Positions 1 through 64,000 of a stretch of 64,000 bases of DNA are shown here, in pieces. How positions within the stretch are numbered: position 1 is the first letter of the stretch; the number at the start of each line of letters is the position of its first letter. This DNA comes from an uncultured virus (IMG/VR IMGVR_UViG_3300031088_000775) (taxonomy: Duplodnaviria > Heunggongvirae > Uroviricota > Caudoviricetes). A program made the translations under genes and the position numbers. The DNA is taken from IMG/VR virus record IMGVR_UViG_3300031088_000775; one strand, 5' to 3'. The notes beneath the pieces were generated by a model. The model searched no databases, was not told where the DNA came from, and was given only the letters and a program-made list of their open reading frames with translations.

Positions 1-657
1 TTATTCTTCAGTTTTTGCTTTCGCGCTTTCCTGGATGTTTGAAGATAGTTTCACTGAATCAATTAGAGAGTAAGGGGAAAGTTTCCAACCTGATTCATCA
101 TAAATAAAATGAAGACTAAAACCAGAATTAGTGTCAGAATAAATTGACATTGGAACGAAAGCAGTTCCCGCTTCGCTATCAATATATACAGCAGACCAAG
201 CATCTGAAGAGACTGGCTCTACTTTTTCCGACTCACTCGACATAGTAACAACTGTGGAAAGAGTAATCAAAGATTGATATGTATTTGACTGTAGACTTTT
301 TGTATCCTCAAAAATATCTTTGAATCTCATTTTATCTTGAAGATCTTTGCTTACTGAAGAATAATCGCCCTTATCGATAGCGTTCATTCTTTCGTTAAAT
401 TCTAGATCCGAGTCAAGAGCTTCATTAAGAATTTGAGTCGAGACACTTAAAACATCTTTTCTGTTTTGATCATCATTCTTTCCTGTCAAGCTTCGTTCTA
501 CTGTCTCGGCACTAGCCTTCGATTCTTGAACAGTACCATTATCTTTCGTTGCAATTAAAGCAGTAATCCATATAGCAGCTATTACCAAACTTGTACAAAT
601 CAAAATAGACGTTGTAATGATTCTTTTATTACTTCTCGAAATTTTCTTCATCTTCAT
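1..657 (-). CDS. Hypothetical membrane-anchored exported protein
   Basis: 218-aa ORF with basic N-terminus plus one hydrophobic helix; overlaps the upstream ORF as in an operon. Confidence 0.75.
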   Translation of the reverse strand: MKMKKISRSNKRIITTSILICTSLVIAAIWITALIATKDNGTVQESKASAETVERSLTGKNDDQNRKDVLSVSTQILNEALDSDLEFNERMNAIDKGDYSSVSKDLQDKMRFKDIFEDTKSLQSNTYQSLITLSTVVTMSSESEKVEPVSSDAWSAVYIDSEAGTAFVPMSIYSDTNSGFSLHFIYDESGWKLSPYSLIDSVKLSSNIQESAKAKTEE

Positions 658-1111
658 TAGTTTCTTCCTCCTCGCGGTTCTTGTTTATATCGTATATGAC
701 AAGAGCCACTACAATCAAAATGCATACAGTAAACGCCGCGGCGATTATTATCCCTCTATTTTGATAAACCTCAACAAATTGCGGGAACCATTCAAACCCA
801 GCTTGAGAAAGAAGTTCTTGAATATTACTGTCCACGCCATTATCAACAAACCATTGGAGGCTTTCTTTGCCTCCAACAAGTTTTTCAACTCTTCCTAAGA
901 CAAAAAGAAGTGCTCCTGTAAAAATAAAAGGTAGAACGAATACAGCGGCGGCCCATGATGAAGGCTTTTTCCAAGCAGGAGTCTTTCTACTCTTCTTTTT
1001 CTTAGTTTTTTTGATGATTAAGCCTTTATCGTCTTCAGACGTGACTATATCGTCTTTATTCTGTAATATACCTTCAATAAAGTCTTTCTCGCTATTGTTA
1101 AGATTATCCAT
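629..1111 (-). CDS. Hypothetical membrane protein (2 TM)
   Basis: 160-aa ORF with two hydrophobic segments, tightly packed with neighbours. Confidence 0.75.
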   Translation of the reverse strand: MDNLNNSEKDFIEGILQNKDDIVTSEDDKGLIIKKTKKKKSRKTPAWKKPSSWAAAVFVLPFIFTGALLFVLGRVEKLVGGKESLQWFVDNGVDSNIQELLSQAGFEWFPQFVEVYQNRGIIIAAAFTVCILIVVALVIYDINKNREEEETNEDEENFEK

Positions 1112-1116
1112 TGTTT

Positions 1117-2388
1117 TTACCTCTCAAGACCCATAATGCTTCCGAGCGTTTTAATGAAATCATCGGAAACGCTTTTAACCATCTGAGTATCAATTTCTGA
1201 AGAATCAATCTGGGCTATAAGTCTTAGAGCGTCATTATATAACCCAGTTTGAATAGCTGTCTGTATAACTGAAATAGACAACTTGTTAGCAAGATCTATA
1301 TCAGAATCACTACCTGAATTAGAGTAGTCACCCGAAATATTTGATTCAACAAGCTTCTCGTCTGCGCTCTCGCTCCAATTAAGGGTAGTAGCAGATCGAG
1401 CCTTCGTCCAAACTCTATGCTTTTCTTCTAAATCGTTGAAAGACCTTTGATCCAACTCCATAGCATTAGCTAATTCAATATTAGTAAAATTCTTTTCTTC
1501 GCCATGTCTCTGTTTTAACGATTCGATAGCTCGAGAGCGTTGCCTCTGGAAGGCGCTCAAGTCTTTTCCTAAATGCTGAGTAGGTAGATCATAGGGCCAA
1601 CGTTTTAATACTGAATTAAGATAACCGCTGAATGGTACAGCAGATGATTCATCGAACTTCTCAATAGCAGTAAGAACCCAGATAGTTATCTGAGAATCTT
1701 GATCATCGGGGTCAGGGAGATAGATCTTTATAGTCTCCATCTCTCTCTTAACTAACGATTTACCAAAAACTTTATAGAATTTTACTAAACCATCAGAAAA
1801 ACTAGGAGTAAAATCAACAATCTCTCGACGCTTTGCTTCTGATCGAGAATATGTCTTGCCGTTTTCAGTTTTTCCAGGGTACTTCTTAACGATTGGTTCA
1901 ATAATACCTTTAACGTAGAAGGCATTAAGACAGTAAGCCTTATACTTACCAGGCTCTGCTTCTCTTACTCGAGCAACTCCTCTAAGAGCTTGAGCCACTT
2001 CTTCCGCAATAGCAGAATCACCATTAAAAGAGACAACTCCGATCTCTCTTAGTGGGGCCGCAAGAAAACCTTCCGTTTCAGTCTGATTATCCCAAATTCT
2101 TGGAGGAAAAAGAAAATCAACTAATTGTTCGTCACGTGGCAGACTATATTTTGTGTACCAACGATTTATAGACTCTAAAGAGAAACGGTAGGACTTCCCA
2201 GTTTCAGATTGAATAAGGCTACCATTCTTGAGGTTAGTTTCAATCCATTCATTAATTTCTTCTTCGTTTACTTTAGCAAGTTTTCTCCATTTTTGTACTG
2301 TATACCACATTCCATCCGAAATTATAGCACCTATACGAAAATCTACAGACTGCTTTTTAAAAGTATCTTTAGTAAAAAGTGCCTCCAT
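1117..2388 (-). CDS. Divergent sigma-70-family factor (FliA/WhiG-like region 2-3) with N-terminal extension
   Basis: TAIEKFDESSAVPFSGYLNSVLKRW resembles sigma region 2.3-2.4, followed by a region-3-like HTH (FTNIELANAMEL). Region 4 not recognisable. Confidence 0.6.
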   Translation of the reverse strand: MEALFTKDTFKKQSVDFRIGAIISDGMWYTVQKWRKLAKVNEEEINEWIETNLKNGSLIQSETGKSYRFSLESINRWYTKYSLPRDEQLVDFLFPPRIWDNQTETEGFLAAPLREIGVVSFNGDSAIAEEVAQALRGVARVREAEPGKYKAYCLNAFYVKGIIEPIVKKYPGKTENGKTYSRSEAKRREIVDFTPSFSDGLVKFYKVFGKSLVKREMETIKIYLPDPDDQDSQITIWVLTAIEKFDESSAVPFSGYLNSVLKRWPYDLPTQHLGKDLSAFQRQRSRAIESLKQRHGEEKNFTNIELANAMELDQRSFNDLEEKHRVWTKARSATTLNWSESADEKLVESNISGDYSNSGSDSDIDLANKLSISVIQTAIQTGLYNDALRLIAQIDSSEIDTQMVKSVSDDFIKTLGSIMGLER

Positions 2389-2796: not shown

Positions 2797-3690
2797 TTAG
2801 TTAGTTAAAAAATGATTTAAAGTCAAGTCTTTCTTTGACAGTTCTTCATTAATCTCTTGAAGTGCTTCATTAAGAAGCTTCTTAAATTTCTGTGAAGTCA
2901 GATTATGAAGTTCTCGAACCTCTTTAGGGCTCCTTGGTTCCCCATCGAAATCAAGCATGAAAGAAGCACTTAAAATATCTTTCTTTACTTGAGAAACATT
3001 TTCAAGAGTCGAATTAAGAATTTCCATCAAACTATTGTTAACATAATGTTCTTCCGAAGATTTCTCCGCCTGAAGTTGCCCAACATAATCAATCAGCTCT
3101 TTTGAAGAACCGTCAGACTCATTAATAACTTTATTTAAACTTGAATGAGTAACCGCAGCATTCATAATATCCATGAACTCATTTTTAGTTAAGTTCAATT
3201 CTGCCATAACAAGATTATCAATCTCTGCTGGGGCGAATCCCTTTTCTTTTAACTCATCTTGAGTTCTCTTAATATTAATATAATCCGCAACTCTATTCTC
3301 GGGAAGTCTTACAAGTCTACCCGTAGAATTAGTACCTCTACCAATCGCCTGTCTGATCCAAGAGAAAGCAACTGTAGAGAATTTATTTCCCATTGTCGGG
3401 TCATATTTATAAACAGCTTTCATAAGACCTTCCATGCCCTCTTGAATCAAATCTTCAATATCTGGCGCTGATCGGAATCGTGATTTAAAATTTTGAGCTC
3501 TACTGATAACTAGAGGAATATTAGCTTGAACTAATTCTTCAACAGCCCGCTCACCAACAATAATAACTTCATGAAGTTCTTCTTTCTTCGTATTATCATT
3601 TAATTCCTCTAATTCATTCTTAGCTTTAATCATAGCCTGAATTTGGAATCCAAGAGCGAGCTCTTCGTCTTTACTTAAAAATTTAGTCAT
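2797..3690 (-). CDS. RNA polymerase sigma-70 factor (RpoD/SigB-like)
   Basis: LSKDEELAL (region 1.2), LVQANIPLV, DLIQEGMEGLMKAVYKYDPTMGNKFSTVAFSWIRQAI (region 2), RLVRLP. Region 4.2 is divergent. Confidence 0.9.
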   Translation of the reverse strand: MTKFLSKDEELALGFQIQAMIKAKNELEELNDNTKKEELHEVIIVGERAVEELVQANIPLVISRAQNFKSRFRSAPDIEDLIQEGMEGLMKAVYKYDPTMGNKFSTVAFSWIRQAIGRGTNSTGRLVRLPENRVADYINIKRTQDELKEKGFAPAEIDNLVMAELNLTKNEFMDIMNAAVTHSSLNKVINESDGSSKELIDYVGQLQAEKSSEEHYVNNSLMEILNSTLENVSQVKKDILSASFMLDFDGEPRSPKEVRELHNLTSQKFKKLLNEALQEINEELSKKDLTLNHFLTN

Positions 3691-3877: not shown

Positions 3878-4276
3878 TTAAATAAATCTTCCTTCAGAAT
3901 CTTCATCATCGAAGTAATTATCTGTAAAAGGCTTCAAGTCGTGATTGTCACCTTCCGATTCACTCTTATCAGCAAGGAAACCCTCTAGTTCTTCACTATA
4001 TTTAGTGGGATTTAATTCATTCTCATATTTTGCAACAGAGGTAGCTTCTTTAAAAATTTCAGAAACATCATTCAAAGACTGACGCGAATCAGAATATGAG
4101 GCCACGCGACTAACTACTCCCGTTTCAAGAAACTCATCCACGAGTCCTTTAATAGCTTTAGTGTCAGTATCGGTCAATGGTTTAACGCCCGACAAGTCTG
4201 GAGCTTCGAAATCCGACAAATCTTCACTTGGGATTGAACGCGAAACAGGTTCTTTCCGTTTTCGTTTGCCTAGCAT
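3878..4276 (-). CDS. Hypothetical acidic protein
   Basis: 132-aa ORF in a co-directional gene string. Confidence 0.65.
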   Translation of the reverse strand: MLGKRKRKEPVSRSIPSEDLSDFEAPDLSGVKPLTDTDTKAIKGLVDEFLETGVVSRVASYSDSRQSLNDVSEIFKEATSVAKYENELNPTKYSEELEGFLADKSESEGDNHDLKPFTDNYFDDEDSEGRFI

Positions 4277-4284
4277 ATAACCGC

Positions 4285-4713
4285 CTAACCTTCAGAAATA
4301 ACGAACTCTCCATTTCGTATTTGGAGAGAATTTACATTAATATCATTAATAATGAAATCAAGATTTATTCTATGCACAATCTCATCAATAAGTAAAATTA
4401 TATCATTTTCTAAGTTAGATTCAAAATTACCTAAATCTTGAAGAAATGATAAGCCAAAAGTAATCTTTAACTGATTATTTTCATCATAATAAAGCTTAAG
4501 TCGGCTTTTAAAAAAGTCACTATCAGCAATTTCATTAACAATTTGACCTGATTCTTCTTTTAAAAGATCAATTAAGTGTGACTTTAAAAGACTTTCCGAA
4601 AACTTAGTTTCTTTAAGAGCAAAATCCAAGAGCTCATTGGAAATCTCACTCTTCTCTAAACTAGACTCTGAAGCCTTTAGCCTTTCAAGCATATTAAGAA
4701 GTGATTTAGCCAC
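4285..4713 (-). CDS. Hypothetical protein
   Basis: 142-aa ORF with GTG start preceded by AGGAGA RBS. Confidence 0.65.
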   Translation of the reverse strand: MAKSLLNMLERLKASESSLEKSEISNELLDFALKETKFSESLLKSHLIDLLKEESGQIVNEIADSDFFKSRLKLYYDENNQLKITFGLSFLQDLGNFESNLENDIILLIDEIVHRINLDFIINDINVNSLQIRNGEFVISEG

Positions 4714-4749
4714 AACTCTCCTAATCTTTTTACAAACTCAATTATTTTA

Positions 4750-4980
4750 TCATCCAGCGTAAATTTTAAAAACATTCCAAATTATTTTACCAATAAAGTA
4801 AATTGCAGTTAGTGATCCGGCTACCCCTAGAAGAATCAAACCATATTTAGCCGTATTAACACTAACCGAACTCTTCGCCCTATGTCTTACTTTAATTTTA
4901 TCATCCGAACGGCCAATTTCTGCGGCTTGGCGGACTTCAGGGTCTTTAACCTTCTTTGTGACAAGAAATTCTTTGAACAT
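4750..4980 (-). CDS. Small membrane protein
   Basis: 76 aa with a C-terminal TM helix; start overlaps the upstream stop (TAATG). Confidence 0.65.
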   Translation of the reverse strand: MFKEFLVTKKVKDPEVRQAAEIGRSDDKIKVRHRAKSSVSVNTAKYGLILLGVAGSLTAIYFIGKIIWNVFKIYAG

Positions 4981-5546
4981 TACTGAACAACCTCTTCAAC
5001 TGAACTATCAATAACAACACCATAAATATTATTTTTAGGTACAATTATACCTTCACCCGGTTTACATGCACCTGAAACACAAACACCAACATACTCACTC
5101 TCTAGAAAATCCTTTTCAGGATCTTCAAAAAAGAAAGCTTCAGTCATTTTGCCTTTAACTGTTATAACCCCAGATTCCATCCACTTGACTTCACCATTAG
5201 GACCTGCTTTAACATTAATTACGGCAGCATTCTCAGTAGGAATGAATGCCTGCCCCAATTTATCAAAATGCCCCGTCTTAACTTCATTTTTGACATTCAC
5301 AAGTATTTCAGTATTTTCAGGAATTATCCCACCTGGAAAAGTATTTCCCTTAACGGGAACTAAGCCAGCCCCAGAAGTTGTCGGAACTACTCTCATTAAA
5401 GTCGACGCAAAACATAGATAAATAACAAATAAAGCTAAAAGACTAAAACCAAAAATTCCCCAGACACGCTTTACAAGTAAACCAGCAAAGGCGCTTTTCG
5501 CAACACGCACTTCCTGACCATTATTATCTTTCTTAGAAAATCCCAT
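4980..5546 (-). CDS. Membrane protein, possibly a degenerate S26/TraF-like peptidase fold
   Basis: N-terminal TM; C-terminal GIIVPKNNIYGVV resembles the S26 box-E tail, but the catalytic Ser/Lys are not evident. Confidence 0.45.
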   Translation of the reverse strand: MGFSKKDNNGQEVRVAKSAFAGLLVKRVWGIFGFSLLALFVIYLCFASTLMRVVPTTSGAGLVPVKGNTFPGGIIPENTEILVNVKNEVKTGHFDKLGQAFIPTENAAVINVKAGPNGEVKWMESGVITVKGKMTEAFFFEDPEKDFLESEYVGVCVSGACKPGEGIIVPKNNIYGVVIDSSVEEVVQ

Positions 5547-5583
5547 TCGTCTTCCTCTGAACTAGTTTTTATATAGACTAATA

Positions 5584-6111
5584 TCAGATGATTGCTAAAA
5601 CTACAAGAGCAACAAGAATAAGACCTAATACAGACGATTTAATCTTATTATCAAGAACCCACTCTTTATAGTCATTTATCTTTTCTTTAGTATTCTTCTT
5701 AGAGGATTCAGGCTGAACTCCATAAAAAGCTTTATTCGCATCATTTAATGCTGTGTTTAAAGTTTTAGTAAATTCTTTAGTCATCATAAAGTCTACCGAC
5801 TCACCATTGTTAGTAGAAACACGTAAAAGCGGTGGCTGAGATTTTAATGAATACTTATTTCTAGGGGCACCATTATCTTTGTATAGATTCACAATTTCCC
5901 AAGATATGACGCCTTCCTCTTGTTTAAAGATTCCAGTATCTTTAGAAAGAAAAATCTGTTCATCATCCCCTGAAAGGAACTCTAAATCATCATCTAAATA
6001 TTCGCTATCCAGTTCTTCGCTTACTGATTCTTTACTCATAGCTGTGTCTGTCTCACTTAAGCTATCAACCTCAAGATCAATATTATCTTTATCGTTTTTC
6101 TTTTTAGTCAT
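5584..6111 (-). CDS. Hypothetical tail-anchored membrane protein
   Basis: 175 aa with acidic N-terminus and a C-terminal TM helix. Confidence 0.7.
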   Translation of the reverse strand: MTKKKNDKDNIDLEVDSLSETDTAMSKESVSEELDSEYLDDDLEFLSGDDEQIFLSKDTGIFKQEEGVISWEIVNLYKDNGAPRNKYSLKSQPPLLRVSTNNGESVDFMMTKEFTKTLNTALNDANKAFYGVQPESSKKNTKEKINDYKEWVLDNKIKSSVLGLILVALVVLAII

Positions 6112-6113
6112 TC

Positions 6114-6929
6114 TTATTCAAGCCCTTCAAGTGGTTCAGTTCTTTCTAATTTTCCTACGTTCTTAAAGCCTGATTCACGAGATTCATTATACTCAGAATT
6201 AGGGTTCTTCCAAGTTGATAAAAGGTATTCATTATCTAGATTGCGGACCGAATAAACTTTCCACTCACCTTCATCATCAATCGCTGTAGTTATTGTTGCT
6301 GTTGTATTTATGTAATCTTTCTCAAGAATTGAGTAACTGCCATCCCACGTAGCGTCATTTGCAGTCATATCACGAACAATTTCTTTGCTATCAAAGACAA
6401 CATCAACTTCAATCGCTTTAACGTCATTTTCGTTAATATTTAAGAATTTTCCATTCTCGTGAGCGTTTACTTCATTGACGTTTGCTTCAATCGTCGCTAA
6501 ACGGTCAATTTCGAATGTATTTAACCATGAAGAAACTACTCTAGTGTCATATCTTAGAGGAGAATCTTTATGAATATAATTGTCTCTTGTCTCTAGGTAA
6601 GAGTCTGCCCGACTTTTAATGTAATCGTTACTTGAAGCATAACCCTCAACAAGAAGATAGCTCACATCAAGAATGCTGTCGCCATCTATAGAATCGGTTA
6701 TTACACCAAAGTTACCCGCCGACTTTATAAATTCTTCAGCTACATTCTCAGCTGCAAGGCGTTCTGATTCAGTCACCTCAACCGTGCTATCGATTGTCTC
6801 ATCAGAATCTTTCGGTATAAAAATAAAGATTGCAGCGCAAATAAGAGCTATAACGCTAAAGACACTTGTAATTAATATAGCTAACCTTTTATTATAACCT
6901 TTAGATTCTTTAATAAGATCATTATTCAT
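6114..6929 (-). CDS. Hypothetical exported/membrane-anchored protein (transfer region)
   Basis: 271 aa with an N-terminal TM and AAGGA RBS. Confidence 0.7.
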   Translation of the reverse strand: MNNDLIKESKGYNKRLAILITSVFSVIALICAAIFIFIPKDSDETIDSTVEVTESERLAAENVAEEFIKSAGNFGVITDSIDGDSILDVSYLLVEGYASSNDYIKSRADSYLETRDNYIHKDSPLRYDTRVVSSWLNTFEIDRLATIEANVNEVNAHENGKFLNINENDVKAIEVDVVFDSKEIVRDMTANDATWDGSYSILEKDYINTTATITTAIDDEGEWKVYSVRNLDNEYLLSTWKNPNSEYNESRESGFKNVGKLERTEPLEGLE

Positions 6930-6985: not shown

Positions 6986-8503
6986 TTAACCAATGTAACG
7001 GTAGCCATAATAAGGGCGGCCTCCAGTATCAACTAGATTTTCATTTAAATAAGATGATGGATCGATTGCTGCAACTCTATGAAGATATGAAGCGTGCGCA
7101 ATTGAATCAACGCCCTTGTAGTCTCCAATATACATAATAATGTGACCACGAGTTTTAGTGACCCAGATGTCTCCAGGCTGAGCTTCAGACTTTGTAGTGT
7201 AACGCTGCCATTTAGGGCTACTAGCAAGATACTGCCCTTGCTGGATTGTTGATCCCCAAGGTATATCAGGGTCCATAGTAAGCTTAGTAACTGTAGCTAC
7301 GAAACGGTCGCATGAAGCATAAAGATCTTTCATTCCGTCAGCACCATGCTCGCTCATTGCCTTAGCCTTAGCGTCTTTATACTCTTGTTTAGCTTTATTC
7401 TTACCCCAAGAGTCTCCACCTGAAACACGGCTTTGAGCATTCTTTTCATACGAAAGACTAATTGCAAGAGAAACAGCATCCGAAGTGTTTACTCCGCCAC
7501 CACTAGCCATAAGGCAAGAGCCACCTGAGCTACTGCTATAACCATTACTTTCGCCATGATTCTTTAAGAAATTGTTAGCATTCTTAAGGCGATTTTCCAT
7601 ATTATGAACGCCGGCTCTCTCAAATTTCTTTAGCCATATTTCTGTTAATTCATCGACAGACTTTGATTGATCGTTAAATCCTCCAGCAAGAAGATTTGAA
7701 CCTTCATATCCATCAAGCTCTTTCTTCAAGAACTTTAATTGAATATTTGGGTCTTTCCAGTCTCCACCCTCTTTTTCAGCAAAATTAGCAAAAGCTAACC
7801 TACGTGTATTATCCCACTGGACTAAACCTGCTGCTCTACCTGATGCTGTCCCTAAACCTTTAAGTTCAGAATTACTCATCCCCGATGGTGAGACCTTCGG
7901 CTGTACCGCCCCAGGAATCATTTGAGATTCAACCCACATATTGCCAATGATGGCTGCTGTCTGATTTAAAGTAAAAGGCTTGTTTCCCAAAAATGGATAG
8001 TTTGTAGTCATAAGAGTTGAGGCTACAGCATTAGCCATTTCCATTTTATCGGCTGATGTTTCAATTGTAGTGCCTGTATCACCATTACTATCAGGAATAC
8101 ATCCTTCAGCATTCTCATTTTTACCAATAATATGAGTTCCCGCGGTAATCGAAATAAGACTTAAAATAATTACTACTACAACAGCCATAACAATGAGGCT
8201 AATTGGGTTTAAGAAAACTGATATTAAACTAGCTATTCCAGTTTTAATAGATCCAATTGTGTTTGTAGCGACAACTTTAGCGTTTTTTACTTTTTCTATA
8301 GCAGCTTTAGCTTTTTCAGCCTTTTCAAGAACCTCTCTTTGAGATTCCGAAAGATTTTCACGGGCCGCATTACCTAAAACCGACTTAGCGCCATCTTTAA
8401 AAGAAGACTTTCCCGAGCCCGACTCGGAAGTCTGAGATTTACTCTCATTCTCCTCAATAGACTCTGAATCTTCTCGCGATTCATTGTTCTTTTCATCAGA
8501 CAT
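6986..8503 (-). CDS. Conjugation cell-wall hydrolase (VirB1-like): phage-tail-lysozyme domain plus NlpC/P60-amidase domain
   Basis: TM anchor; AAIIGNMWVES...GLVQWD...QLKFLKKEL...FERAG (Phage_lysozyme2-type); C-terminal SCDRFVA...GDIW...GHIIMYIG Cys/His dyad. Confidence 0.85.
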   Translation of the reverse strand: MSDEKNNESREDSESIEENESKSQTSESGSGKSSFKDGAKSVLGNAARENLSESQREVLEKAEKAKAAIEKVKNAKVVATNTIGSIKTGIASLISVFLNPISLIVMAVVVVIILSLISITAGTHIIGKNENAEGCIPDSNGDTGTTIETSADKMEMANAVASTLMTTNYPFLGNKPFTLNQTAAIIGNMWVESQMIPGAVQPKVSPSGMSNSELKGLGTASGRAAGLVQWDNTRRLAFANFAEKEGGDWKDPNIQLKFLKKELDGYEGSNLLAGGFNDQSKSVDELTEIWLKKFERAGVHNMENRLKNANNFLKNHGESNGYSSSSGGSCLMASGGGVNTSDAVSLAISLSYEKNAQSRVSGGDSWGKNKAKQEYKDAKAKAMSEHGADGMKDLYASCDRFVATVTKLTMDPDIPWGSTIQQGQYLASSPKWQRYTTKSEAQPGDIWVTKTRGHIIMYIGDYKGVDSIAHASYLHRVAAIDPSSYLNENLVDTGGRPYYGYRYIG

Positions 8504-17377: not shown

Positions 17378-17383
17378 AGTAGA

Positions 17384-47350: not shown

Positions 47351-47385
47351 TAAGGGCTAGTAATCAAAGGTGTTACTAGCCCTTA
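47351..47385. terminator. Bidirectional terminator between the ORF and rnpB
   Basis: 13-bp IR TAAGGGCTAGTAA/TTACTAGCCCTTA between convergent genes. Confidence 0.75.
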
Positions 47386-47387
47386 AG

Positions 47388-47632: not shown

Positions 47633-47639
47633 AGAGTAA

Positions 47640-48826: not shown

Positions 48827-50440
48827 ATGAAGCAAATTGTCTCACCGTATTTAAAACAAGAGTCAGAGAGTTTATTAGACTACCCTGAAATAGCTAAATT
48901 TTGGTCAAAATTAAATAATATCTCTATGGAAAATATCTCTTCTAAGTCTTATCTTGATTTTATATGGAATTGCACTAATGGGCTAGACCATATTTTTAGT
49001 AGATCACCGGGGAAAATGCTCTTAAATCAAAATTGTCCAATCTGTACTTTCAGAGAATTATTAGTAGGTTTTAATGATTTAGAAACAACACATCCAGAAG
49101 TTGCTAAAAGTTGGTCTCCTGAAAATGAACTAAAAGCCTCAGAAGTTATGCAAAGTAATACTAAGAAATTCTATTGGGTAGATGATTATGGACATTCGTA
49201 TAAGCATTCAGTTTATGATGTAGTTACCTTAAATAAAGGATGTAAGTATTGCTCTGGACAGGCTGTTCTTGCTGGATTTAATGACCTCGCTACGACTGCC
49301 CCTGAAGAAGTGGAGTTTTGGGATTATGAGAAAAATGAGTTTTATACTCCAGAAACTATCAGCAAAGGCTCTAATAAATTAGTCTGGTGGAAATGTTCTA
49401 AAGGTCATAGTGTTGAAAGATCGCCGAAATCTTGGATAAAGAATCATTGTGATTATTGTTCTGGCCGCAAAGTCTTAGTAGGCTTTAATGATGTTTTCAC
49501 TGTAGCACCTCACTTAAAAGATGAGTGGGACTATGAGAAGAATACTCTTGATCCTCTAACCTTACGCTTCAATTATCGAGAGAAAGTTTGGTAGAAGTGC
49601 AAGAAATGCTCTCATTCTTGGGAAAGTATTTTAAGAAGTAGATCACAAAAAGATGCGGGTTGCCCAGATTGCGCTATTAATACTTCTTTTCTAGAAGAAA
49701 TTGTAAATAATTTTCTTAAAGAGAATTATAGTGGAATTATTTGGCGGCAACGTAGACCAATTCAGGGTCCAAATCAAAAGCTAGAGCTAGACTTTTGGCT
49801 TCCAGAAATAAACCTAGGTATAGAAGTTCAAGACTTCACTACTCACTCTAGAGACTCTGATAGGGAATACACTGATTATCGAGCCTATTCGAACAAGCAG
49901 AATTACAAGAAAGGTCCGACATATCATGATAATAAAAGAAGACTTGCTAAAGAGCAGTTAGATGTTACAGTTTTAGAGTTATGGGAAGACGAGATTCGTG
50001 CAGGCGAAAAATCTATCTTTGAAATTCTACAAGACTATCTAAATATTTCTACTCCAGTGATCACCAATAAGAACATTCAAAAAATGATAGAGTCAAGGAA
50101 AATCGCTTTTAAAAGTCTCGATCAGTCTGTTAATCCCATGACATTTAATGATTTTAATAGTAAGAAAAAGCGGGATGAATTATATTGGATTTGTAATCTA
50201 GGGCATAGCTATAAAGCAACTGTCGTAAAGAAAATAAGTTCATCTAGAGCTTGTACTATATGTAATTCAGAAAAACTTTTTGAGCTGTTAAAATGCGAAA
50301 CTCATGGGCTTTCTAAACATAAAGACGGAAGGTGCTATAAATGTCTTATGTCTAAAGTTACTGTCATGAAAGAGTGCTTAATTCACGGGGAAACTAAGCA
50401 TCGTGGAGAAAGTTGTTATAGATGCCGCAATAGAAAATAA
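48827..50440 (+). pseudogene. Zinc-ribbon repeat plus PD-(D/E)XK endonuclease plus CHHC-type repeats, interrupted by an in-frame TAG
   Basis: KVW-TAG-KC at 49592-49594 where the paralogous repeat has LVWWKC. The frame stays open (ELDFWLPEINLGIEVQDF..H..LWEDEI) and runs into ORF 50057-50440. Confidence 0.85.
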
Positions 50441-52984: not shown

Positions 52985-53079
52985 TATAATAGTAGTGGTT
53001 GAAAAGACTATAAGTAATAATAAGACTAACAATCAGTAAATAGATGTGTAGTCTAATTTTAAAAATTAAGGTAGGATTA

Positions 53080-55341: not shown

Positions 55342-55400
55342 TTGTTTTGCAATGAGTTAAGAGGGAGTAAAGATTTCTTAGATGTTGATTAATGATACCT

Positions 55401-55434
55401 AACTGCAGAATTCTGACGCTTAGACTGCAGTCTA
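55401..55434 (-). repeat. Partial copy of the repeat (palindrome module)
   Basis: AACTGCAGAATTCTGACGCTTAGACTGCAGTCT is nearly identical to 56332-56364. Confidence 0.8.
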
Positions 55435-56072: not shown

Positions 56073-56214
56073 ACTTAGAATTAAGTGTAAAATGAATATT
56101 TCTTTTATTTTGTTATAAGTTATTTTCAACAATTTCCACTTCGGATTTATATTTATTATAAGGCTCTTATTAAATTATTATTAGACTGTATTTACTTTTT
56201 CTAAGATCGAGTAG

Positions 56215-56365
56215 AAACTGCGCTACTAAGACCACCTAGTTAGACCCGAGGCTATCACGGCAAACTAGGTGGTCTTTTCGCGTTTAGATGCAGTTTTAAT
56301 GGAAAATGATGTCTACTGTATGACTATACCCAACTGCAGTATTTTGACGCTTAGACTGCAGTCTC
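56215..56365 (-). repeat. Intergenic structured repeat, copy 3 (inverted)
   Basis: Reverse complement matches 45440-45557 and includes the AGACTGCAGTCT palindrome (56353-56364). Confidence 0.9.
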
Positions 56366-57175: not shown

Positions 57176-58333
57176 ATGTCTGAAAGCAATAGAGGTTTAG
57201 ATTCTGAGTCTTTTTACACTTACAAGATAACTGCTCCTGAATCTGGGTCACTAAAATACTATCTAGGTGTTCGAAAGATTTCTATACCATACAATCAAGT
57301 GACTGAAGCGGACTGCTTAAAGGATAATTACTATGGTTCAGGCGGGGTTAAGTACTCAGCTTGGCGAAAGAAGTATAAAGAGTTCTTTAAGAAAGAAATC
57401 ATAGAGATTTTCTCTTCTAGAGAGGATGCTTATCTTGCTGAACGTCTACTTGTTGGTGATTTATGGAAGACTGATGGAAATTGTATGAATAGCGCGCCAG
57501 GCGGGATACTTACGAAAGGCTTTGATAATTCAGAAGATGTCTTTGCTGAAAAAGACTGTGTGATACATGATCGAACAATGCACCAAGGTGATTACTGCTG
57601 TAAATGCTTAGCGTTATCTAAGATCACGATAGAAGATTGTGAGGTACATGGATATGTTAAGCATAGAGACGGAAAATGCTATACTTGTAGAAACAATGAG
57701 AATACTAGTTTAAAAGAATGCTCTGTGCATGGATTAACAAAGCATAAAGGCTGGTCTTGTTATAAGTGTTCGATAAACTCTAAAGAATTTTATGAAGTCT
57801 GCGAGAAGCATGGGAGAACTAAGCACACTTCGACTGGTGAGTGCTACTCTTGTAGGAACTCATTTCGAGTTAGTTTAAAGAATTGTTCTAAACATGGCGA
57901 AGTTAAGCATAATGGAGATAGTTGCTATAAATGCATTAGCGAGGGCAGTAAAAATATAGGTCACTGTGAAGTTCATGGTGAAGTGGCTTTTCAAGGTAAT
58001 TCTTGCGCTTCTTGCGTTAATGAGAAAAAGATTGCGAGCAAGGAATGCTCTGTTCATGGTCTGACTACTCATTTCGGAGACTCATGTGCGAAATGCTCTT
58101 CTAGAAATTCTATTTCAATTAAGATGTGCTCGATTCACGGTGAAGTAAAGCATTTTGGGGATACTTGCTCTACATGTCGCTCGCAGAAAGCTGTTAATGA
58201 AAATTTTTGTGAAATTCATGGGTGGTCGAAGTTTAGGGGATCTAATTGTTATAAGTGCTTGGCAAGTAAGACTGCTCATACTCGATTTCATAAGGAGAGT
58301 TTTAAGGAGGGTTGCGTATATTGCGAAAAGTAA
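57176..58333 (+). CDS. GIY-YIG (Seg-like) endonuclease with 9 tandem C-x2-H-G-x3-H-x4-C-x2-C repeats
   Basis: FYTYKI..YYLGVR..YYGSG..AE..N..GG catalytic domain followed by ~27-aa repeats. Confidence 0.82.
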   Translation: MSESNRGLDSESFYTYKITAPESGSLKYYLGVRKISIPYNQVTEADCLKDNYYGSGGVKYSAWRKKYKEFFKKEIIEIFSSREDAYLAERLLVGDLWKTDGNCMNSAPGGILTKGFDNSEDVFAEKDCVIHDRTMHQGDYCCKCLALSKITIEDCEVHGYVKHRDGKCYTCRNNENTSLKECSVHGLTKHKGWSCYKCSINSKEFYEVCEKHGRTKHTSTGECYSCRNSFRVSLKNCSKHGEVKHNGDSCYKCISEGSKNIGHCEVHGEVAFQGNSCASCVNEKKIASKECSVHGLTTHFGDSCAKCSSRNSISIKMCSIHGEVKHFGDTCSTCRSQKAVNENFCEIHGWSKFRGSNCYKCLASKTAHTRFHKESFKEGCVYCEK

Positions 58334-58457: not shown

Positions 58458-60896
58458 ATGGCAAGAAAAAAGAAAAATGCAGTTACAGGTGCTGATCTTA
58501 AGCTAAAGCAGAAGAAGTTTGAGCAGGTTGCTGGAAATATTGAGATTACTCCAGTAAGTAAATTCCTTAAAGAGAACTTTCTTCCTTACGCTTGGTCATA
58601 TAACCTTGACCGAGCTCTGAATGACGTGACTGGTCTTAAGCCAGTTCAGCGTAGAATTCTTTACACAATGTATAAAGAGGGATTGACTCCCGGTTCAAAG
58701 CGTTCTAAGGTAGCCTCACTTGTTGGTTCAGTGCTACACTACCACCCGCACGGTGACTCTTCAGTAGAAGACGCGCTAAAGAATCTAGCTCGAGAGCACA
58801 TCTTCCGCGTACCACTTATTGACGGTAAAGGCGACTTCGGTATTCCAGGTACTCCAGGTGCTGCCGGACGTTATATCGAGGCTCGACTAAATAAAGCAGC
58901 TTGGTTAAATGTTCAAGAAATTGGTGAACATGCTACTGCTATGATGCCAAGTTACGATGGTTCTAAAGAGGAGCCCGTAAAGACTCCAGTGCGTTGGCCT
59001 ATCTCTGTCATTAACGGTGGCGCAGGTATTGCTATCGCTTACGCCTCTTCGATGCCTTCACACAATCCTTCGGAAATCATGAAAGCATGCAAGCTGCTAG
59101 TGCGTAAGCCTGACTCAACTCACGCTGCATTGCAGAAAATTATTCTCGGCCCAGATTTCAACATGGGTGGAAGCATTACATCTAATGAGGGAATTAAGCA
59201 GTATTTAGAGACTGGTCAAGGTGCATTCAAGATTCGCGGTCAGTACACTGTTACTCCAGGTGCTCGATCTAGTTTCCGTATTGAGTTTGATGAGATTCCA
59301 TTCGGAACTTACCCTGAAAAAATTATTCAGGAAATTCAGAAGAAGATGGAGGCTGGTCATCTTAAAGAGGTTTCTAGCTATAAAGACCTTGGGGACTTGA
59401 CTCACCCTATTCGTATTGTTATTGATACTAAGCCTTCCTCTAATTATAAGAAGGTTCTAGCAGATCTTTTCAAGCACACTAGTCTTGAATCATCATTCTC
59501 TGCTAACATCACTACAATTGTGAATAATAAGCCTCAATTGTCTTCAATGAAAGATCTACTTATCGACTTCATTGAATTCCGCAAGCAGTGCATTTTCAAT
59601 AAGACTAAATTCAGCCTAAAGAAGAAAGACGAGCGACTTCACATGGTCGATGGTCTGATGAAGGCTCTTATGGATATTGATTCCGCAATCTCTATCATTC
59701 GTAAGTCTGATGATATTGAATCAGCTCGAGAGAAACTACAGGCGAAGTTCAAAATTGATTCAATTCAGGCTGACTACGTTCTTTCACTTCAGTTACGCCG
59801 ACTAACTAAAATGGATAAGCTAGAGTTAGAGAATGAGCGTAAGGAACTTATTGATTCAATCACCTATCTTCAAAGTCTAATGACTGATGAAGAAGTTCTT
59901 AAAGAATACCTTCTTAAAGAGTTCGATGAAACCCTTAAGGTTATCGGTGATGAGCGTAAGACTGAAGTCAACCAGATGACTGAAGAGGAGCTTGCTGCTG
60001 CTGAGAAGGAAATGGCTAACGAACTAAAGGCTGATGAAAAAGATCTTCCATGCCACCTGACTCGCTTTGCAGACGGTAAACTTCTAAAGTCTAAAGAGCG
60101 CTTCGAGTATACTGGTAGAACTAATAAGCTAAGTAATACACCAGTTAAAGAAAGATTGTCAGTAGGAACGAAAGATTCAATTATCGTTATAGATAGCAAG
60201 GGCACTGGACATAAGGTTTCTATGTCCTATCTTATTGAAGATAAAGCATCGGACTCTAAGGCCCTAGGACTAGATCTACCTAAGGACGCAACTGTTATCG
60301 GCGTTTCAAAGCTTGAGGCTGGTAAAAATGAGTATGGTGTTCTGATTGGTACTCGAAAGGGATTAGCAAAGCTTGTTAAAGTCGAGTGGCCAAATAGTGA
60401 AGAATTCCCAGTTATCAATCTTGATGAAGATGATGAAGTTATCTATGTAGAGTGGCTCACTAAACCAGTTGACTCTCTTGACATGGTATTCGTTTCTTCA
60501 GATGGATATATTGCACGATTCCCAGTTAGCACTCTTCGCGCTTCTGGCTTCAGGTCAGCCGGAGTTAGAGGAATGAAGCTCCGCGAAAACGCTCAAGCTG
60601 TAACTGCAACTACAGTGCCTACAGGAAAAGCTGACGGCATCTTTGTTATCACTCAAGGCGATAAGACTATAAAGATGTCTACGCTTGAAGAGGTGCCTAC
60701 TAAAGGCAAGGGCGTTTCAGGCGTAATTATCCACGTCTTTAAGAAGGATGAAAGTAAGCTGACTAACGCTTATGTTGGTGTTGAACCAGTTGCAACTCTT
60801 GATAAGTTCAAGAGCGTTGTTCCTCTACCGACAATTCAGAAACGTTCTTCAAAAGGTATCGACTTTGATTTCAAGGTGCTCTTCGGTACCATGTAA
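58458..60896 (+). CDS. gyrA: Type IIA DNA topoisomerase subunit A (GyrA/ParC)
   Basis: GLKPVQRRILY, YHPHGDSS, catalytic AAGRYIEARL, GPDF, LQLRRLT, and a beta-pinwheel-like CTD; no canonical GyrA box seen. Confidence 0.92.
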   Translation: MARKKKNAVTGADLKLKQKKFEQVAGNIEITPVSKFLKENFLPYAWSYNLDRALNDVTGLKPVQRRILYTMYKEGLTPGSKRSKVASLVGSVLHYHPHGDSSVEDALKNLAREHIFRVPLIDGKGDFGIPGTPGAAGRYIEARLNKAAWLNVQEIGEHATAMMPSYDGSKEEPVKTPVRWPISVINGGAGIAIAYASSMPSHNPSEIMKACKLLVRKPDSTHAALQKIILGPDFNMGGSITSNEGIKQYLETGQGAFKIRGQYTVTPGARSSFRIEFDEIPFGTYPEKIIQEIQKKMEAGHLKEVSSYKDLGDLTHPIRIVIDTKPSSNYKKVLADLFKHTSLESSFSANITTIVNNKPQLSSMKDLLIDFIEFRKQCIFNKTKFSLKKKDERLHMVDGLMKALMDIDSAISIIRKSDDIESAREKLQAKFKIDSIQADYVLSLQLRRLTKMDKLELENERKELIDSITYLQSLMTDEEVLKEYLLKEFDETLKVIGDERKTEVNQMTEEELAAAEKEMANELKADEKDLPCHLTRFADGKLLKSKERFEYTGRTNKLSNTPVKERLSVGTKDSIIVIDSKGTGHKVSMSYLIEDKASDSKALGLDLPKDATVIGVSKLEAGKNEYGVLIGTRKGLAKLVKVEWPNSEEFPVINLDEDDEVIYVEWLTKPVDSLDMVFVSSDGYIARFPVSTLRASGFRSAGVRGMKLRENAQAVTATTVPTGKADGIFVITQGDKTIKMSTLEEVPTKGKGVSGVIIHVFKKDESKLTNAYVGVEPVATLDKFKSVVPLPTIQKRSSKGIDFDFKVLFGTM

Positions 60897-60931
60897 TTTG
60901 ATTCTTTGAGAATCTTTGAATAGTCTACTTG

Positions 60932-60957
60932 AGGCGGGGTCTTAGACCCCGCCTTTT
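60932..60957 (+). terminator. Intrinsic terminator after gyrA
   Basis: AGGCGGGGTCT/AGACCCCGCCT plus TTT. Confidence 0.75.
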
Positions 60958-60995
60958 GTGATATTTGTATAAAATCTTTTGAAAGGCCTTTCTTA

Positions 60996-61874
60996 ATGTC
61001 ATCTTGCTATGTTAACTCTAAACTTGAAGAGCGCTCGTTTAAAGACCGCGCTTTCATGGGCGCTACACACGCTATGAGTGGTGTTGCTCTATTCTTAGCT
61101 ATTGCAGCATTCGCACCCGACTTTACTGAAAAGGCCCTAGGTACTTCAGTAATCTGGGTTATTATTTTAGGGGCTTTAGTTACTGCTGGAGCCGCACTTC
61201 TGCCAGACCTTGATAACACTACATCTACTGCTAAAAACTCTTTAGGCCCGCTTGGTCTCGTTCTTAGCTACTTCTTTAGAACATCTTCCGCAATCATTCA
61301 AACAGTTGTCAGAACTCCAAGAGATGATCCTGAACCTAACCCTCACCGTGGAGCTTGGCACACTATTCCAGCAGCAGCCTTACTTGGGTATTTAACTTAT
61401 TTAGGGACTAAAATTGGTGGTTCAGTTGACATACCTCTTATAGGTACTATTACTGGTGGCGGAGTTTTTGCGCTTGTTATTGCTTTCTTAATGACTCATT
61501 TAGCTCTTTCAGGGCTTGCTAGTAGCTTTATGAAGAAAATTAAGAAGTCAAGTGCTGTTGGCGAGCTTGTTGCACTAGCAATTTCATTTACATTGACTGC
61601 TTTAATTTTTGTAAATATTCCTACAGATATTAGTTTCTGGTGGTTGGGGGTTTCAGTTGGGTTTGGAATGTTCGTTCATATCCTTGGGGATAGTATGACC
61701 ACGGCCGGCGTGCCCATCCTCTTCCCGCTTTCAGCAATTATTAAAGGTAAGTTCTGGTGGACTACAAGATTCTTGACAATTAAGGCTGGCGGGATCGTGG
61801 AAAATACTATCTTCCTCCCGGGCTTCACAGTCCTATCAATAGTCTCAATCGTAAAAATTCTAATAGATATGTAA
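60996..61874 (+). CDS. YdjM-like membrane-bound metal-dependent hydrolase
   Basis: MGATHAMSG, ALLPDLD, HRGAWHT, HILGDSMT..GVP. Start may be at 61056. Confidence 0.85.
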   Translation: MSSCYVNSKLEERSFKDRAFMGATHAMSGVALFLAIAAFAPDFTEKALGTSVIWVIILGALVTAGAALLPDLDNTTSTAKNSLGPLGLVLSYFFRTSSAIIQTVVRTPRDDPEPNPHRGAWHTIPAAALLGYLTYLGTKIGGSVDIPLIGTITGGGVFALVIAFLMTHLALSGLASSFMKKIKKSSAVGELVALAISFTLTALIFVNIPTDISFWWLGVSVGFGMFVHILGDSMTTAGVPILFPLSAIIKGKFWWTTRFLTIKAGGIVENTIFLPGFTVLSIVSIVKILIDM

Positions 61875-61930: not shown

Positions 61931-63160
61931 ATGATGAGAATGTTTAATTTTAAGTTAAATAAAGATCGAGACCCTAAAATAACCAGCTGCAATACAATGA
62001 TAGAGCTATATTGGGATTGCAATAAAGGCCATACTTTTAAATCTCGAGGCTGCGATTTGAAGTCAAGAGGCTATAAATGTAAAGAGTGCTATCCGAGTAG
62101 AAACGTATCCCCGAAGGTAAATTCTCTCCAGGCGATTTATCCAGATATTTCTGCTCATTATGATAGAGAAAGAAATGGTAACACGCCAGATCAAGTGCAT
62201 AAGGGCTCTAAAAGGCTGGTTTGGTGGCTCTGCGATTTCGGACATAATTATGATAGAGAAGTTTATGTAGAGGTAAGATATGAGGGACGCTGCCCTATTT
62301 GTACTGGCTATAGATTAGTTCCTGGAATAAATGATTTAGAAACTCTTTACCCGCATCTTGCTCCTATGTGGAGCCCTAATAACCCTAAGCCTATGAATAT
62401 GTATTCTCCTAAGAGTGATTTTAAGGCTGAATTGATTTGCTCCTCAGGGCATGTATTTTTAAGAAGAATTTTCCATCAGACTAACGGTAATCTTTTACCT
62501 TGTCCTGAGTGCCCTAAGCCTATACCTTTTGAAACTTCTGTAGCTTCAAGTGATTTGTTAATGAGCATGTGGAGCGAAGTTAACGAAGAAGACCCGAGAT
62601 ATATTAAGAAGAAATCTCATAAGATCTTTACTTGGAATGGTAGAAATTGTGGGCACGCATTTATGAAGTCTGTTAAAGATGTTACTGAAACTTATGGTAA
62701 GTGTTCTGACTGCAAAAACACTCAAGAAGATATTTTCGCTGACTTTATTAAAGATAGATATGAATTGTCTAATATTTTAAGAAATAAAAGACTTCTTAAG
62801 AGTGATGAAATGAATCTTGAGTTAGATATTGTTGTTCCTGATAAGAATATTGCTATAGAATTTAATGGAGAATTGTGGCATTCTAATATTAAGATTTCTT
62901 CTAATAGCGTTTTTGGTAGTGCTGTGAAGTATCACTCTTGGAAGATCTCTAAATCTAAAGACATTAACCTTGATTTGAAGTTTGTTTGGGCTCATGATTG
63001 GAGGGCTCATAAAGAAGAATTGTTTGATGCACTTGATGAATTGTTTATGAATGGAGAATCTGACTCCCCTTTTCTGAATCGTTTAGAGTCTCGTTTTGAT
63101 AGAGATTTGGATTGCGGTTGTGAGAAGTTTGAGAAGTCTCCAGAGTGGCTTACTACATAA
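61931..63160 (+). CDS. Zinc-ribbon (DUF4379-like) repeat plus PD-(D/E)XK/DUF559-like endonuclease; N-terminus possibly frameshifted
   Basis: WxCxxGH and CPxC repeats, ELDIVVPDKNIAIEFNGELWHS. An RBS-preceded ATG at 61887 is out of frame by one base. Confidence 0.8.
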   Translation: MMRMFNFKLNKDRDPKITSCNTMIELYWDCNKGHTFKSRGCDLKSRGYKCKECYPSRNVSPKVNSLQAIYPDISAHYDRERNGNTPDQVHKGSKRLVWWLCDFGHNYDREVYVEVRYEGRCPICTGYRLVPGINDLETLYPHLAPMWSPNNPKPMNMYSPKSDFKAELICSSGHVFLRRIFHQTNGNLLPCPECPKPIPFETSVASSDLLMSMWSEVNEEDPRYIKKKSHKIFTWNGRNCGHAFMKSVKDVTETYGKCSDCKNTQEDIFADFIKDRYELSNILRNKRLLKSDEMNLELDIVVPDKNIAIEFNGELWHSNIKISSNSVFGSAVKYHSWKISKSKDINLDLKFVWAHDWRAHKEELFDALDELFMNGESDSPFLNRLESRFDRDLDCGCEKFEKSPEWLTT

Positions 63161-63359
63161 AATCTTAAGGTTTTTAGTAGTTTTTTATAAAGTACTTTTG
63201 TCCTTCGTCTCAAAATACGCTCAACAGACAGTAACTGTAGTCTCACGGCACTTTAGTTACTGACTGTACACAAACCAACCTATAATATGACCCTCTTAGT
63301 CTCGCTGGTAGAGCTGCTAAGAGGGTATTTATTTGTAAATTTTTTGGTAAAATATTTTC

Positions 63360-64000
63360 ATGGCTAAAAAGATTGTTATGTATAAATGTGCTGACTGTGG
63401 GCGTGTACACAGAAAAGAACCGATCTCTTGCAATGGTTGTCAAGGTTTTGGTCCATTTAATGAATTTATTGAAGGTGGTGCTACAGAAGCGTCCAGTGCT
63501 GGTTTGAAATCAGGTGGAGCTGCTGCTCCGTCAAGTCGGGCTATGTCAATTTCAGAATTGAATAATAAGCCCTTTGCTAGAACTGAAACTGGGATTACCG
63601 AGTTAGATAGAGTTCTTGGTGGGGGTTTCGTTAATTCCTCTGTAGTTCTTCTTGGTGGAATGCCTGGAGCTGGTAAGTCTACTATGTGTTTAGCAATTGC
63701 TGAGAAGTTTGCTCAAATGGGTAAGAAAGTGCTTTACGCTTCAGGTGAAGAGTCTGAGCAGCAGATTGGACTTAGAGCTAAGAGGATGAATATTGCTAAT
63801 GAGAATATTCGTATAACAAATGAGGTTAGTCTTGAGGTGATTCAAGGCCATATTGAAACTGAAGCTCCAGAGTTCATGATCATTGATTCACTTCAGACGT
63901 TAGCTAGTTCTGAGATTTCTGGAAGTGTTGGAAGTATTTCTCAATCGAAAGAAGCGGCTCATGTTCTTACCAGAATCGCTAAAACTCGAGGGATTACGGC
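63360..64000 (+). CDS. radA: DNA repair protein RadA/Sms (partial, runs off the window)
   Basis: Not in the ORF track. MAKKIVMYKCADCG..CNGC zinc finger, TGITELDRVLGGG, GGMPGAGKST, LYASGEES, IIDSLQT. Confidence 0.93.
   Translation, partial: MAKKIVMYKCADCGRVHRKEPISCNGCQGFGPFNEFIEGGATEASSAGLKSGGAAAPSSRAMSISELNNKPFARTETGITELDRVLGGGFVNSSVVLLGGMPGAGKSTMCLAIAEKFAQMGKKVLYASGEESEQQIGLRAKRMNIANENIRITNEVSLEVIQGHIETEAPEFMIIDSLQTLASSEISGSVGSISQSKEAAHVLTRIAKTRGIT

Follow-up and report, generated by a model that had tools for sequence, protein, structure and literature searches.

What kind of replicon carries a conjugation system of Gram-positive type beside replication and transcription genes of the kind met in large phages? 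The question is raised by a 64,000-nucleotide stretch of DNA, hereafter the window, from the uncultured virus record IMGVR_UViG_3300031088_000775 of IMG/VR. The original prediction, made from the letters alone, had described a hybrid of two halves: a VirD4/TcpC/VirB6/VirB1 cluster and a second, phage-typical gene set running from RIIA to RadA, on a largely autonomous giant element of a probable actinobacterium. When the 53 open reading frames (ORFs) of the window were searched against Pfam, NCBIfam and PHROGs profiles, the transfer cluster and, apart from the second sigma factor, the protein genes listed with it were recovered, together with several that the earlier list did not contain: the N-terminal half of TcpF/VirB4, a TcpD-like protein, TadE, a NikA/MobA-like ribbon-helix-helix (RHH) protein, a GmrSD_C/HNH nuclease and an oligoribonuclease (Orn).

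In our view the window is likely to hold the core of transfer and replication genes of a plasmid-like conjugative element of ~0.7 Mb, one member of a family of 0.3–0.83 Mb whose host is a Gram-positive, probably actinobacterial, cell. The family is Inocle-like and apparently undescribed: the literature searched, which left most subscription papers and supplements outside, held no description of it, nor of any element of this sort with an RNase P RNA.

A conserved core in a family of very large elements

The window (GC content 37.3%) belongs to a contig of 697,643 bp, a size taken from the record of its VirD4 protein. VirD4 relatives with 43–55% identity are encoded on contigs of 437, 475, 671, 674, 682, 728 and 828 kb. 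In viral contigs a single VirD4 query retrieved nothing, and matches were obtained with a VirD4 alignment as the query. The loci compared were the best 30 of 80 from metagenomes and the best 6 of 16 from viral contigs, the remainder being distant partial matches; some of these 36 are duplicates or near-identical. DnaG is encoded upstream of VirD4 in 29 of the 36, and upstream DNA is missing in 3 of the 7 exceptions. The arrangement in which 'conjugation' genes adjoin 'phage-like' ones is therefore old and conserved. GC content in the 36 loci ranges from 33 to 61%, so the AT-richness remarked on originally is no family trait.

Longer records of relatives (G001 to G006) extend this picture. Two of them, G001 (345 kb) and G003 (420 kb, ~56% GC), are near-complete. 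G001 encodes homologues of 40 of the 53 window proteins and is collinear with the left 44 kb, while 137 of its 332 ORFs are common to G003 and mostly collinear over ~300 kb. In this single collinear core of the family, transfer genes are intermixed with those for replication, and in the left arm of the window the GC content at third codon positions (GC3) is alike for both gene sets (0.27–0.34); neither observation fits a hybrid of two halves. Several of the genes taken as phage-like, namely DnaG, GyrAB, RadA, Orn and PhoH2, are moreover of bacterial type (kinship of DnaG, GyrB and ThyX was judged by pairwise identities). G002, filed in IMG/VR as a 'provirus', has gene positions and identities equal to those of the 682-kb contig and looks like a cut-out of that member.

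These data largely refute the reading of the contig as an assembly chimera or as a conjugative element recently fused with a phage, and its probability is negligible. What speaks for it is the switch of gene strand at 45.4–45.6 kb, which coincides with a high-copy repeat left unspanned by every listed contig in four sequencing runs, and the differing affinity of the gyrase pair. The VirD4–DnaG junction, however, lies at least 17 kb from that repeat and is the one kept in 29/36 loci, and both G001 and G003 contain genes from each arm. In the phyllosphere run, the probable source, depth is ~32–40 over 39–59 kb except at repeats, and two further runs (one dairy, one coded) cover both arms at matching depths with pieces ~90–98% alike. 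Misassembly, one of the outcomes that the original prediction named as fatal to it, is thereby largely refuted. The local order across 45.4–45.6 kb is provisional, and the co-occurrence of both arms is not in doubt.

The gyrase pair shares 58% and 49% identity with the distant member G005, against 35–42% with closer members, and its GC3 (0.36–0.38) is higher than that of the left-arm transfer and replication sets. Its affinity to G005 suggests that the pair may have been exchanged among family members. An inversion of 45.4–56.3 kb between the 141-nt inverted repeats was considered and dropped: the repeat is high-copy, and GyrB is of the G005 type and lies upstream of GyrA, as in G005. The dispersed repeats (31976–32110, 45440–45580 and 56191–56331; 41189–41591; 55395–55433) are strain-specific, high-copy in the phyllosphere run and not found in the relatives examined. 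A replication origin at the GC-skew minimum near 42–46 kb was also rejected, the signal being inseparable from coding-strand bias.

Autonomy without chromosomal or virion hallmarks

The earlier claim of an autonomous giant extrachromosomal element holds: the contig is 698 kb long, and relatives have a replisome and tRNA arrays and lack 16S rRNA, rpL2, RNA polymerase (RNAP) and the terminase families searched for. The replication genes of G001 comprise a split DnaE, DnaX, delta, clamp, DnaB, SSB and an NAD ligase, accompanied by RecA, RecG, SbcC, NrdE/F/I, NAD salvage and RNA repair. DnaE was detected in five of five records and is split in four; its halves lie at 79006–79338 and 76803–77312 in G001 and at 363088 and 187943 in G003, where they are 175 kb apart and the C-terminal half has an intein. 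The five relatives carry 49, 66, 44, 50 and 45 tRNAs per record (the G004 count includes mirrored copies), and tmRNA is present in both tRNA arrays examined; within the 64-kb window there is no tRNA. The arrays of G001 and G003 serve nearly all amino acids and include a tRNA-Ile whose anticodon is TAT; CCA is encoded in about a quarter of the tRNAs, and a small SRP RNA lies inside the tRNA region of G004, at the Rfam cut-off. An FtsK-like ATPase is a core gene. Accessory genes of G003 include sortase pili, TnpB elements, NrdD and a probable CCA-adding enzyme. G001 has a tandem run of ~13 unannotated genes (350–420 aa; the two inspected look paralogous), a Ter/TelA cluster, and an ADP-ribosylglycohydrolase gene adjoined by three ADP-ribosyltransferase (ART)-like genes in tandem.

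A size of ~0.7 Mb, near-complete tRNA sets, tmRNA, SRP RNA and the genes for DnaG, GyrAB, RadA and Orn might also be expected of the chromosome or a chromid of a small-genome bacterium, and a shortened RNase P RNA is known in some CPR (candidate phyla radiation) bacteria (PMC8172020). A host chromosome had been named from the outset as the other finding that would overturn the element. Against it, 16S rRNA, rpL2 and RNAP are each absent from all five relatives and from the window, and aminoacyl-tRNA synthetase, ribosomal and central-metabolism families were all missing from the Pfam scans. In 185,579 species genomes (GTDB) there was no close VirD4, the matches being distant and partial only. 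We therefore regard a chromosomal origin as extremely improbable.

A huge phage or phage-plasmid with virion genes too divergent to recognise, to which a conjugation system has been added, is the alternative to which we grant most, though it too is unlikely. The megaphage size would suit it, as would the tRNA arrays, RIIA/RIIB, PhoH, RNA repair, ARTs, homing endonucleases and a sigma factor without RNAP (PMC7824862). Large-terminase families, in contrast, were not detected in the relatives (PF03237, 0/5; PF17289, 0/8; PF04466, 0/8), where divergent forms could escape, and tail sheath was absent from eight of eight. Capsid, portal, terminase and tail families were likewise missing from the ORFs scanned in G001 (240 with Pfam, window-gene homologues and most short ORFs being left out; 141 with PHROGs) and in G003 (142 of 276 non-shared ORFs with Pfam; 111 with PHROGs), so that neither scan contained a structural module. 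Most of the unannotated core proteins inspected are membrane-bound or secreted, or are acidic and of low complexity, and the transfer system with its Tad pili belongs to the core.

Transfer genes and a candidate relaxase

The coupling and mating-pair genes were all found: VirD4, a two-gene VirB4, VirB6, a VirB8-like protein and a hydrolase. The C-terminal half of TcpF, which complements the half in the window, is a separate gene next to TcpE in G001 (NF052333 positions 467–809), and there the Tad–TcpE–TcpF C-half cluster follows RadA, the gene on which the window ends. G001 also has Tad pilus genes and three VirB6-like genes. Gene context suggests the VirB1 role given here as a functional label to the hydrolase, and the second Tad accessory gene is probably so identified by its N-terminal membrane segment and its context. 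The C-terminal tail of the VirB6-like protein constitutes repeat family D1. The RHH protein is a candidate relaxosome accessory factor. A subgroup of loci keeps the transfer block with no DnaG, ThyX or PhoH match beside it.

TrwC and MOBP relaxase families were absent from the records of five relatives. A G001 gene adjoining a PilT ATPase matches MobC weakly (NF041423, E 6e-6); Replic_Relax was detected in 28 of 57 homologues of this MobC-like protein, with a PD...E-x-E...K motif kept in the alignment. The relaxase-like domain is C-terminal, behind a long acidic tract. The homologues sit on contigs that match the VirD4 carriers in size, and a distant one occupies the equivalent place in G003.

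Giant linear plasmids of the invertron type, with long terminal inverted repeats and relaxase-free transfer as in the tRNA-array plasmids of Mycobacterium avium, have been described (PMC12803027), and the present family could in principle be of that kind. In G004 a stretch of at least 90 kb that includes the transfer region is perfectly duplicated in inverted orientation (1–90000 and 347577–437576), the ends of G001 overlap in inverted orientation over 55 nt, and the FtsK-like ATPase is core. The ends of G003 and G005 are direct, however, the MobC-like and RHH accessory proteins belong to the core, and the Pfam scans revealed no terminal-protein family. The duplication in G004 may be a true terminal repeat or an assembly artefact. 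G001-like contigs recur at 337–347 kb. On balance we think a linear invertron decidedly improbable.

Sigma-like proteins and a shortened RNase P RNA

Two sigma factors had been proposed. One is a clear sigma-70; the second, the family-marker protein encoded at 1117–2388, proved only sigma-like and divergent. It has no Pfam match itself, and among 77 homologues a weak Sigma70_r3 match occurs in 11 and an r2 match in 6. Its structural model (pLDDT 92.5) aligns with sigma-S (Z 8.5, rmsd 3.4 over 143 residues) and with MarR-type winged helix-turn-helix domains (Z ~9). A Foldseek search gave no match at E≤0.001, the best row being a SigD model at E 3.6e-3, which is not significant alone. The model is consistent with a divergent, extended sigma-like protein rather than a proven sigma factor. 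Since the marker has 67 representatives at 50% identity (E≤1e-30), the family is diverse.

The RNase P RNA of the original prediction is real (E 3e-23), though shortened. It misses the Rfam gathering cut-off (81.9 versus 100 bits) because it is short: the P1–P4 catalytic core is kept, while the specificity domain consists of ~74 nt in place of ~140 model positions and P18 is absent. Two of five relatives also have the RNA, G004 in a short form of 258 nt and G005 in full form. RNase P RNAs may have been reported from phages before.

Probable host

Tcp-type genes and sortase pili indicate a Gram-positive envelope. Within the Gram-positive bacteria, the host is probably a member of the Actinomycetota, judging from sequence affinities. 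The hints are Wag31-like, Ssd/CpaE-Actino and actinobacterial TadA models (all below cut-off), the presence of Orn, PhoH2 and a class A RNase P RNA, high DnaG and GyrB matches to Actinobacteria, and a Streptomyces plasmid as the source of the nearest cultured VirD4. Bacillus is not known to have Orn. The actinobacterial host first proposed is thus plausible from marker genes, and the RadA comparison does not discriminate between phyla. Host assignment through Orn (6 genomes), tRNA blastn, NrdD, sortase and the G001 NrdE was set aside after mixed results.

Points that weaken the interpretation

Several observations pull away from a conjugative, plasmid-like element of an actinobacterium. As to the host, the best RadA similarity is 42% in Actinomycetota and 41% in Pseudomonadota (121 and 61 genomes), WhiB was found in none of five relatives, and the G001 NrdE is equally close to rhizobial and Curtobacterium plasmid copies. 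As to transfer, the MobC-like scores are under the curated cut-offs, a fold search of the relaxase-like model returned winged-helix domains only, and a MobC-like homologue from the window's own contig was neither in the window nor among the matches found. As to replication and the form of the replicon, no Rep or DnaA was found, and the ends overlap over only 55 nt in G003 (direct) and G001 (inverted). The phage alternative gains from the filing of relatives as viruses in IMG/VR, from the viral labels on the Atlas clusters of the marker protein, and from two partial matches to minor 'head' PHROGs (E 3.5e-9 and E 7e-8), the only structural signals obtained; many core genes carry no annotation. 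Finally, the portion read is 64 of 698 kb, so that virion genes may lie on the rest of the contig, the absence tests cover relatives' records of 97–438 kb, and members of at least 670 kb are known only from 20-kb loci and one 310-kb part (G002).

Comparison with known elements

Inocles are the nearest parallel. They too are uncultivated giant elements without bacterial markers, missing from isolate collections, with VirB4 and VirD4, a Replic_Relax (PF13814) marker, DnaE, a sigma factor, NrdH, signal peptidase and tRNAs (PMC12340149). They differ in size (245–395 kb), GC content (24–32%), habitat (oral) and host (Streptococcus), and their InoC protein of ~454 aa has PF13814 at the N-terminus (PMC12340149). 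The present element is 698 kb long with 37% GC, comes from a phyllosphere run, and has Orn and actinobacterial-type matches, in a family that reaches 828 kb and spans 33–61% GC; it is further set apart by a C-terminal relaxase-like domain (compared with InoC by domain and layout only), Tad pili, split DnaE and VirB4, and the RNase P RNA.

Among plasmids, pMP7017 of Bifidobacterium breve (190 kb) resembles the family as an actinobacterial conjugative megaplasmid with a tRNA array and tmRNA, and resembles G003 in its sortase pilus, CAP and DUF1524 genes, but has 20 tRNAs and a replicon of Rep type (PMC10832533). Its PLSDB entry was unmatched by the window VirD4, marker sigma and TcpC and by the relaxase-like domain, so a homologous transfer core was not found there. 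The giant linear plasmids of M. avium share a size above 300 kb, a tRNA array and an actinobacterial host, and differ in a hybrid type VII/IV secretion system, 415-bp terminal repeats and the lack of a relaxase (PMC12803027), against the Tcp channel, Tad pili and MobC-like protein here. Plasmids of 400–608 kb from cultured Arthrobacter, Curtobacterium and Streptomyces anulatus (PLSDB) resemble the family in way of life but differ in their core. They have, between them, nrdHIEF, pilus ATPases, sigma factors, tRNAs or VirD4-like genes; the marker sigma is absent from all three, there is no TcpC match, and a distant VirD4 is found only in S. anulatus (E 3e-35). The Arthrobacter plasmid of this class carries secY and secG. 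Over PLSDB as a whole, the best VirD4 match was 25% (9 records), with none for the marker sigma or the relaxase-like domain; in INPHARED, queried with GyrB only, the best was 36%.

The Tcp-type conjugation system of pCW3, a Gram-positive system, consists of TcpC, TcpD, TcpE, TcpF, a VirB6-like protein and a hydrolase, with TcpM as relaxase. By comparison, TcpF is here divided between two distant genes, the coupling protein is of TraD type, a MobC-like protein stands in place of TcpM, and Tad pili are added.

Jumbo and huge phages are alike in size, tRNAs, tmRNA, in some groups a replicase of Pol III type or a split DnaE, sigma factors without RNAP, rIIA, PhoH, RNA repair, NAD systems and ARTs (PMC7162821, PMC7824862); they are unlike in that no virion module was found here and a conjugation system is core. 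One of these surveys set plasmid-like sequences aside, and its supplementary lists may hold family members (PMC7162821).

Nucleases and a candidate cargo leader

The free-standing endonucleases of the original prediction are present as ~8 nuclease-like ORFs, two of them broken. A leader of ~45 residues (aromatic-H...C...C...H-aromatic, abbreviated H-C-C-H) opens three window proteins (32620–33816, 42589–43809 and 44143–45069) and many ORFs of G001–G004, ahead of unrelated domains: nuclease, ligase, phosphoesterase and ART. The pattern occurs in 23 of 3,861 ORFs read forward versus 2 reversed; a hidden Markov model (HMM) built from the seeds added 11 records, tile duplicates included. It has no Pfam name and belongs to no named Atlas family. 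Its position before unrelated cargo domains is as expected of a delivery tag, for which the polyvalent-protein idea offers a lead. One speculative extension, which we hold only tentatively, is that the family is a deep virion-less lineage of up to 0.83 Mb with a jumbo-phage-like life built on its own replisome, two sigma factors, a near-complete tRNA set, tmRNA, SRP RNA and a minimal RNase P ribozyme, in which conjugation replaced the capsid and the leader tags nucleases, RNA-repair enzymes and ARTs for delivery into the recipient.

Table 1. Features of the 64,000-nt window, with the evidence for each
Position	Strand	Feature	Evidence
1–1111	-	Two membrane proteins conserved in the family core, the first cut by the window edge	Homologues in G001, G002, G003, G006
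1117–2388	-	Family-marker sigma-70-like protein, 423 aa	N-terminal winged helix, beta-rich middle domain, C-terminal sigma2/3-like region
2797–3690	-	Sigma-70 factor	PF04542, TIGR02997, phrog_351
3878–6929	-	Six small conserved genes, several membrane-anchored, downstream of hydrolase	Collinear in G002 (6/6) and G001 (4/6)
6986–8503	-	VirB1/TcpG-like cell-wall hydrolase, lysozyme-type	PF18013 (Phage_lysozyme2), E 2e-28
8568–13685	-	VirB6/TcpH-like (VirB6/TrbL) membrane protein, repetitive C-terminal tail	PF04610 (E 2e-7), NF046089
13900–14932	-	Treble-clef zinc-finger endonuclease gene, broken by a frameshift near 14516	PF14311; three-frame reading
15020–16474	-	PhoH2 (PIN-PhoH)	NF053827, E 4e-86; best PLSDB rows actinobacterial, 34–35%
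16703–17965	-	Two Tad-pilus accessory genes	One TadE (PF07811); kept in most loci
18041–18904	-	NikA/MobA-like RHH protein	PF21983, E 8e-9; 48–66% identity in relatives
19084–19902	-	Membrane-anchored GmrSD_C/HNH nuclease	PF07510
19902–21299	-	N-terminal half of split VirB4/TcpF	NF052333 profile positions 6–428 of 813
21463–21798	-	TcpD-like small membrane protein	NF040686, weak, E 0.008; 31–68% in relatives
21913–23715	-	TcpC (VirB8-like)	PF12642, E 2e-6; downstream of VirD4 in 31/36 loci
23749–26295	-	VirD4/TraD-type coupling protein	PF10412, PF12696, TIGR03743; 164 homologues
26356–28798	-	Two unannotated genes between VirD4 and DnaG	Conservation weak
28899–30797	-	DnaG primase	TIGR01391, above cut-off
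30955–31816	-	NrdH glutaredoxin (30955–31254) and Orn	TIGR02194; NF003765, above cut-off
31976–32110		Dispersed hairpin repeat, copy 1	
32620–33816	-	YqaJ nuclease, N-terminal H-C-C-H leader	PF09588; leader motif
34006–35292	-	ThyX	PF02511, phrog_85
35504–38083	-	RIIA-like GHKL ATPase	phrog_612, E 3e-38
38649–41030	-	Prim-Pol domain protein	PF09250, E 3e-7
41189–41591		Two copies of a 71-nt repeat	Multi-copy with raised depth in phyllosphere run
41654–45069	-	Conserved gene (41654–42469) and two H-C-C-H-leader proteins	Conserved gene ~50% identity in G001/G002
45440–45580		Dispersed hairpin repeat at gene-strand switch	Folding z -3.96; depth peak
47382–47634	-	Shortened class A RNase P RNA, 253 nt	RF00010, E 3e-23, 81.9 bits
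47723–52984	+	Cluster of free-standing nuclease-like genes	PHROG 559/3339, PF14311
48827–50056	+	Broken treble-clef endonuclease gene	In-frame stop at 49592–49594
53044–55212	+	GyrB/ParE	58% over 426 aa to G005 versus 37–41% to G001/G003/G004/G006
56191–56331		Dispersed hairpin repeat, inverted copy	
57176–58333	+	Homing-endonuclease-like gene	phrog_314
58458–61874	+	GyrA/ParC (58458–60896) and YdjM membrane hydrolase	Neighbours in G001, G003, G005
61931–63160	+	Treble-clef zinc-finger endonuclease	PF14311, phrog_559
63360–>64000	+	RadA, runs off the window	TIGR00416

Implications for the family

Taken as a conjugative element, a member of this family would replicate with its own replisome of DNA Pol III type, made up as in the relatives of a split DnaE, a clamp with its loader, DnaB, DnaG, SSB, ligase and type II topoisomerase, for which the Prim-Pol protein is the candidate initiation factor. 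The two sigma factors would redirect the host RNAP, the element's tRNAs would supplement host ribosomes, and their maturation may be carried out by its RNase P RNA together with a host protein subunit. Spread would be by conjugation: Tad pili would make the contact, the hydrolase, TcpC/D/E, the VirB6 paralogues and the two-gene VirB4 would form the channel, and VirD4 would couple a MobC-type relaxase and its RHH accessory protein to it. The phage-like genes would then be the tools that every large autonomous replicon needs, rather than half of a phage fused to a plasmid.

The window appears to represent a widespread and old family of mobile replicons of very large size, not found in the plasmid and species-genome collections searched, and it would widen the Inocle concept, adding a further probable host phylum and doubling the size. 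Several of its parts are of interest in their own right, namely the minimal RNase P RNA that this mobile element carries, the VirB4 divided between two genes, the new architecture of the sigma-like protein and the candidate leader for cargo. The extended sigma, VirD4 and the MobC-like protein are marker genes with which a census can be taken, and because close relatives, many of their contigs 90–99% alike, occur in a dairy metagenome and in one coded run, the host may be culturable.

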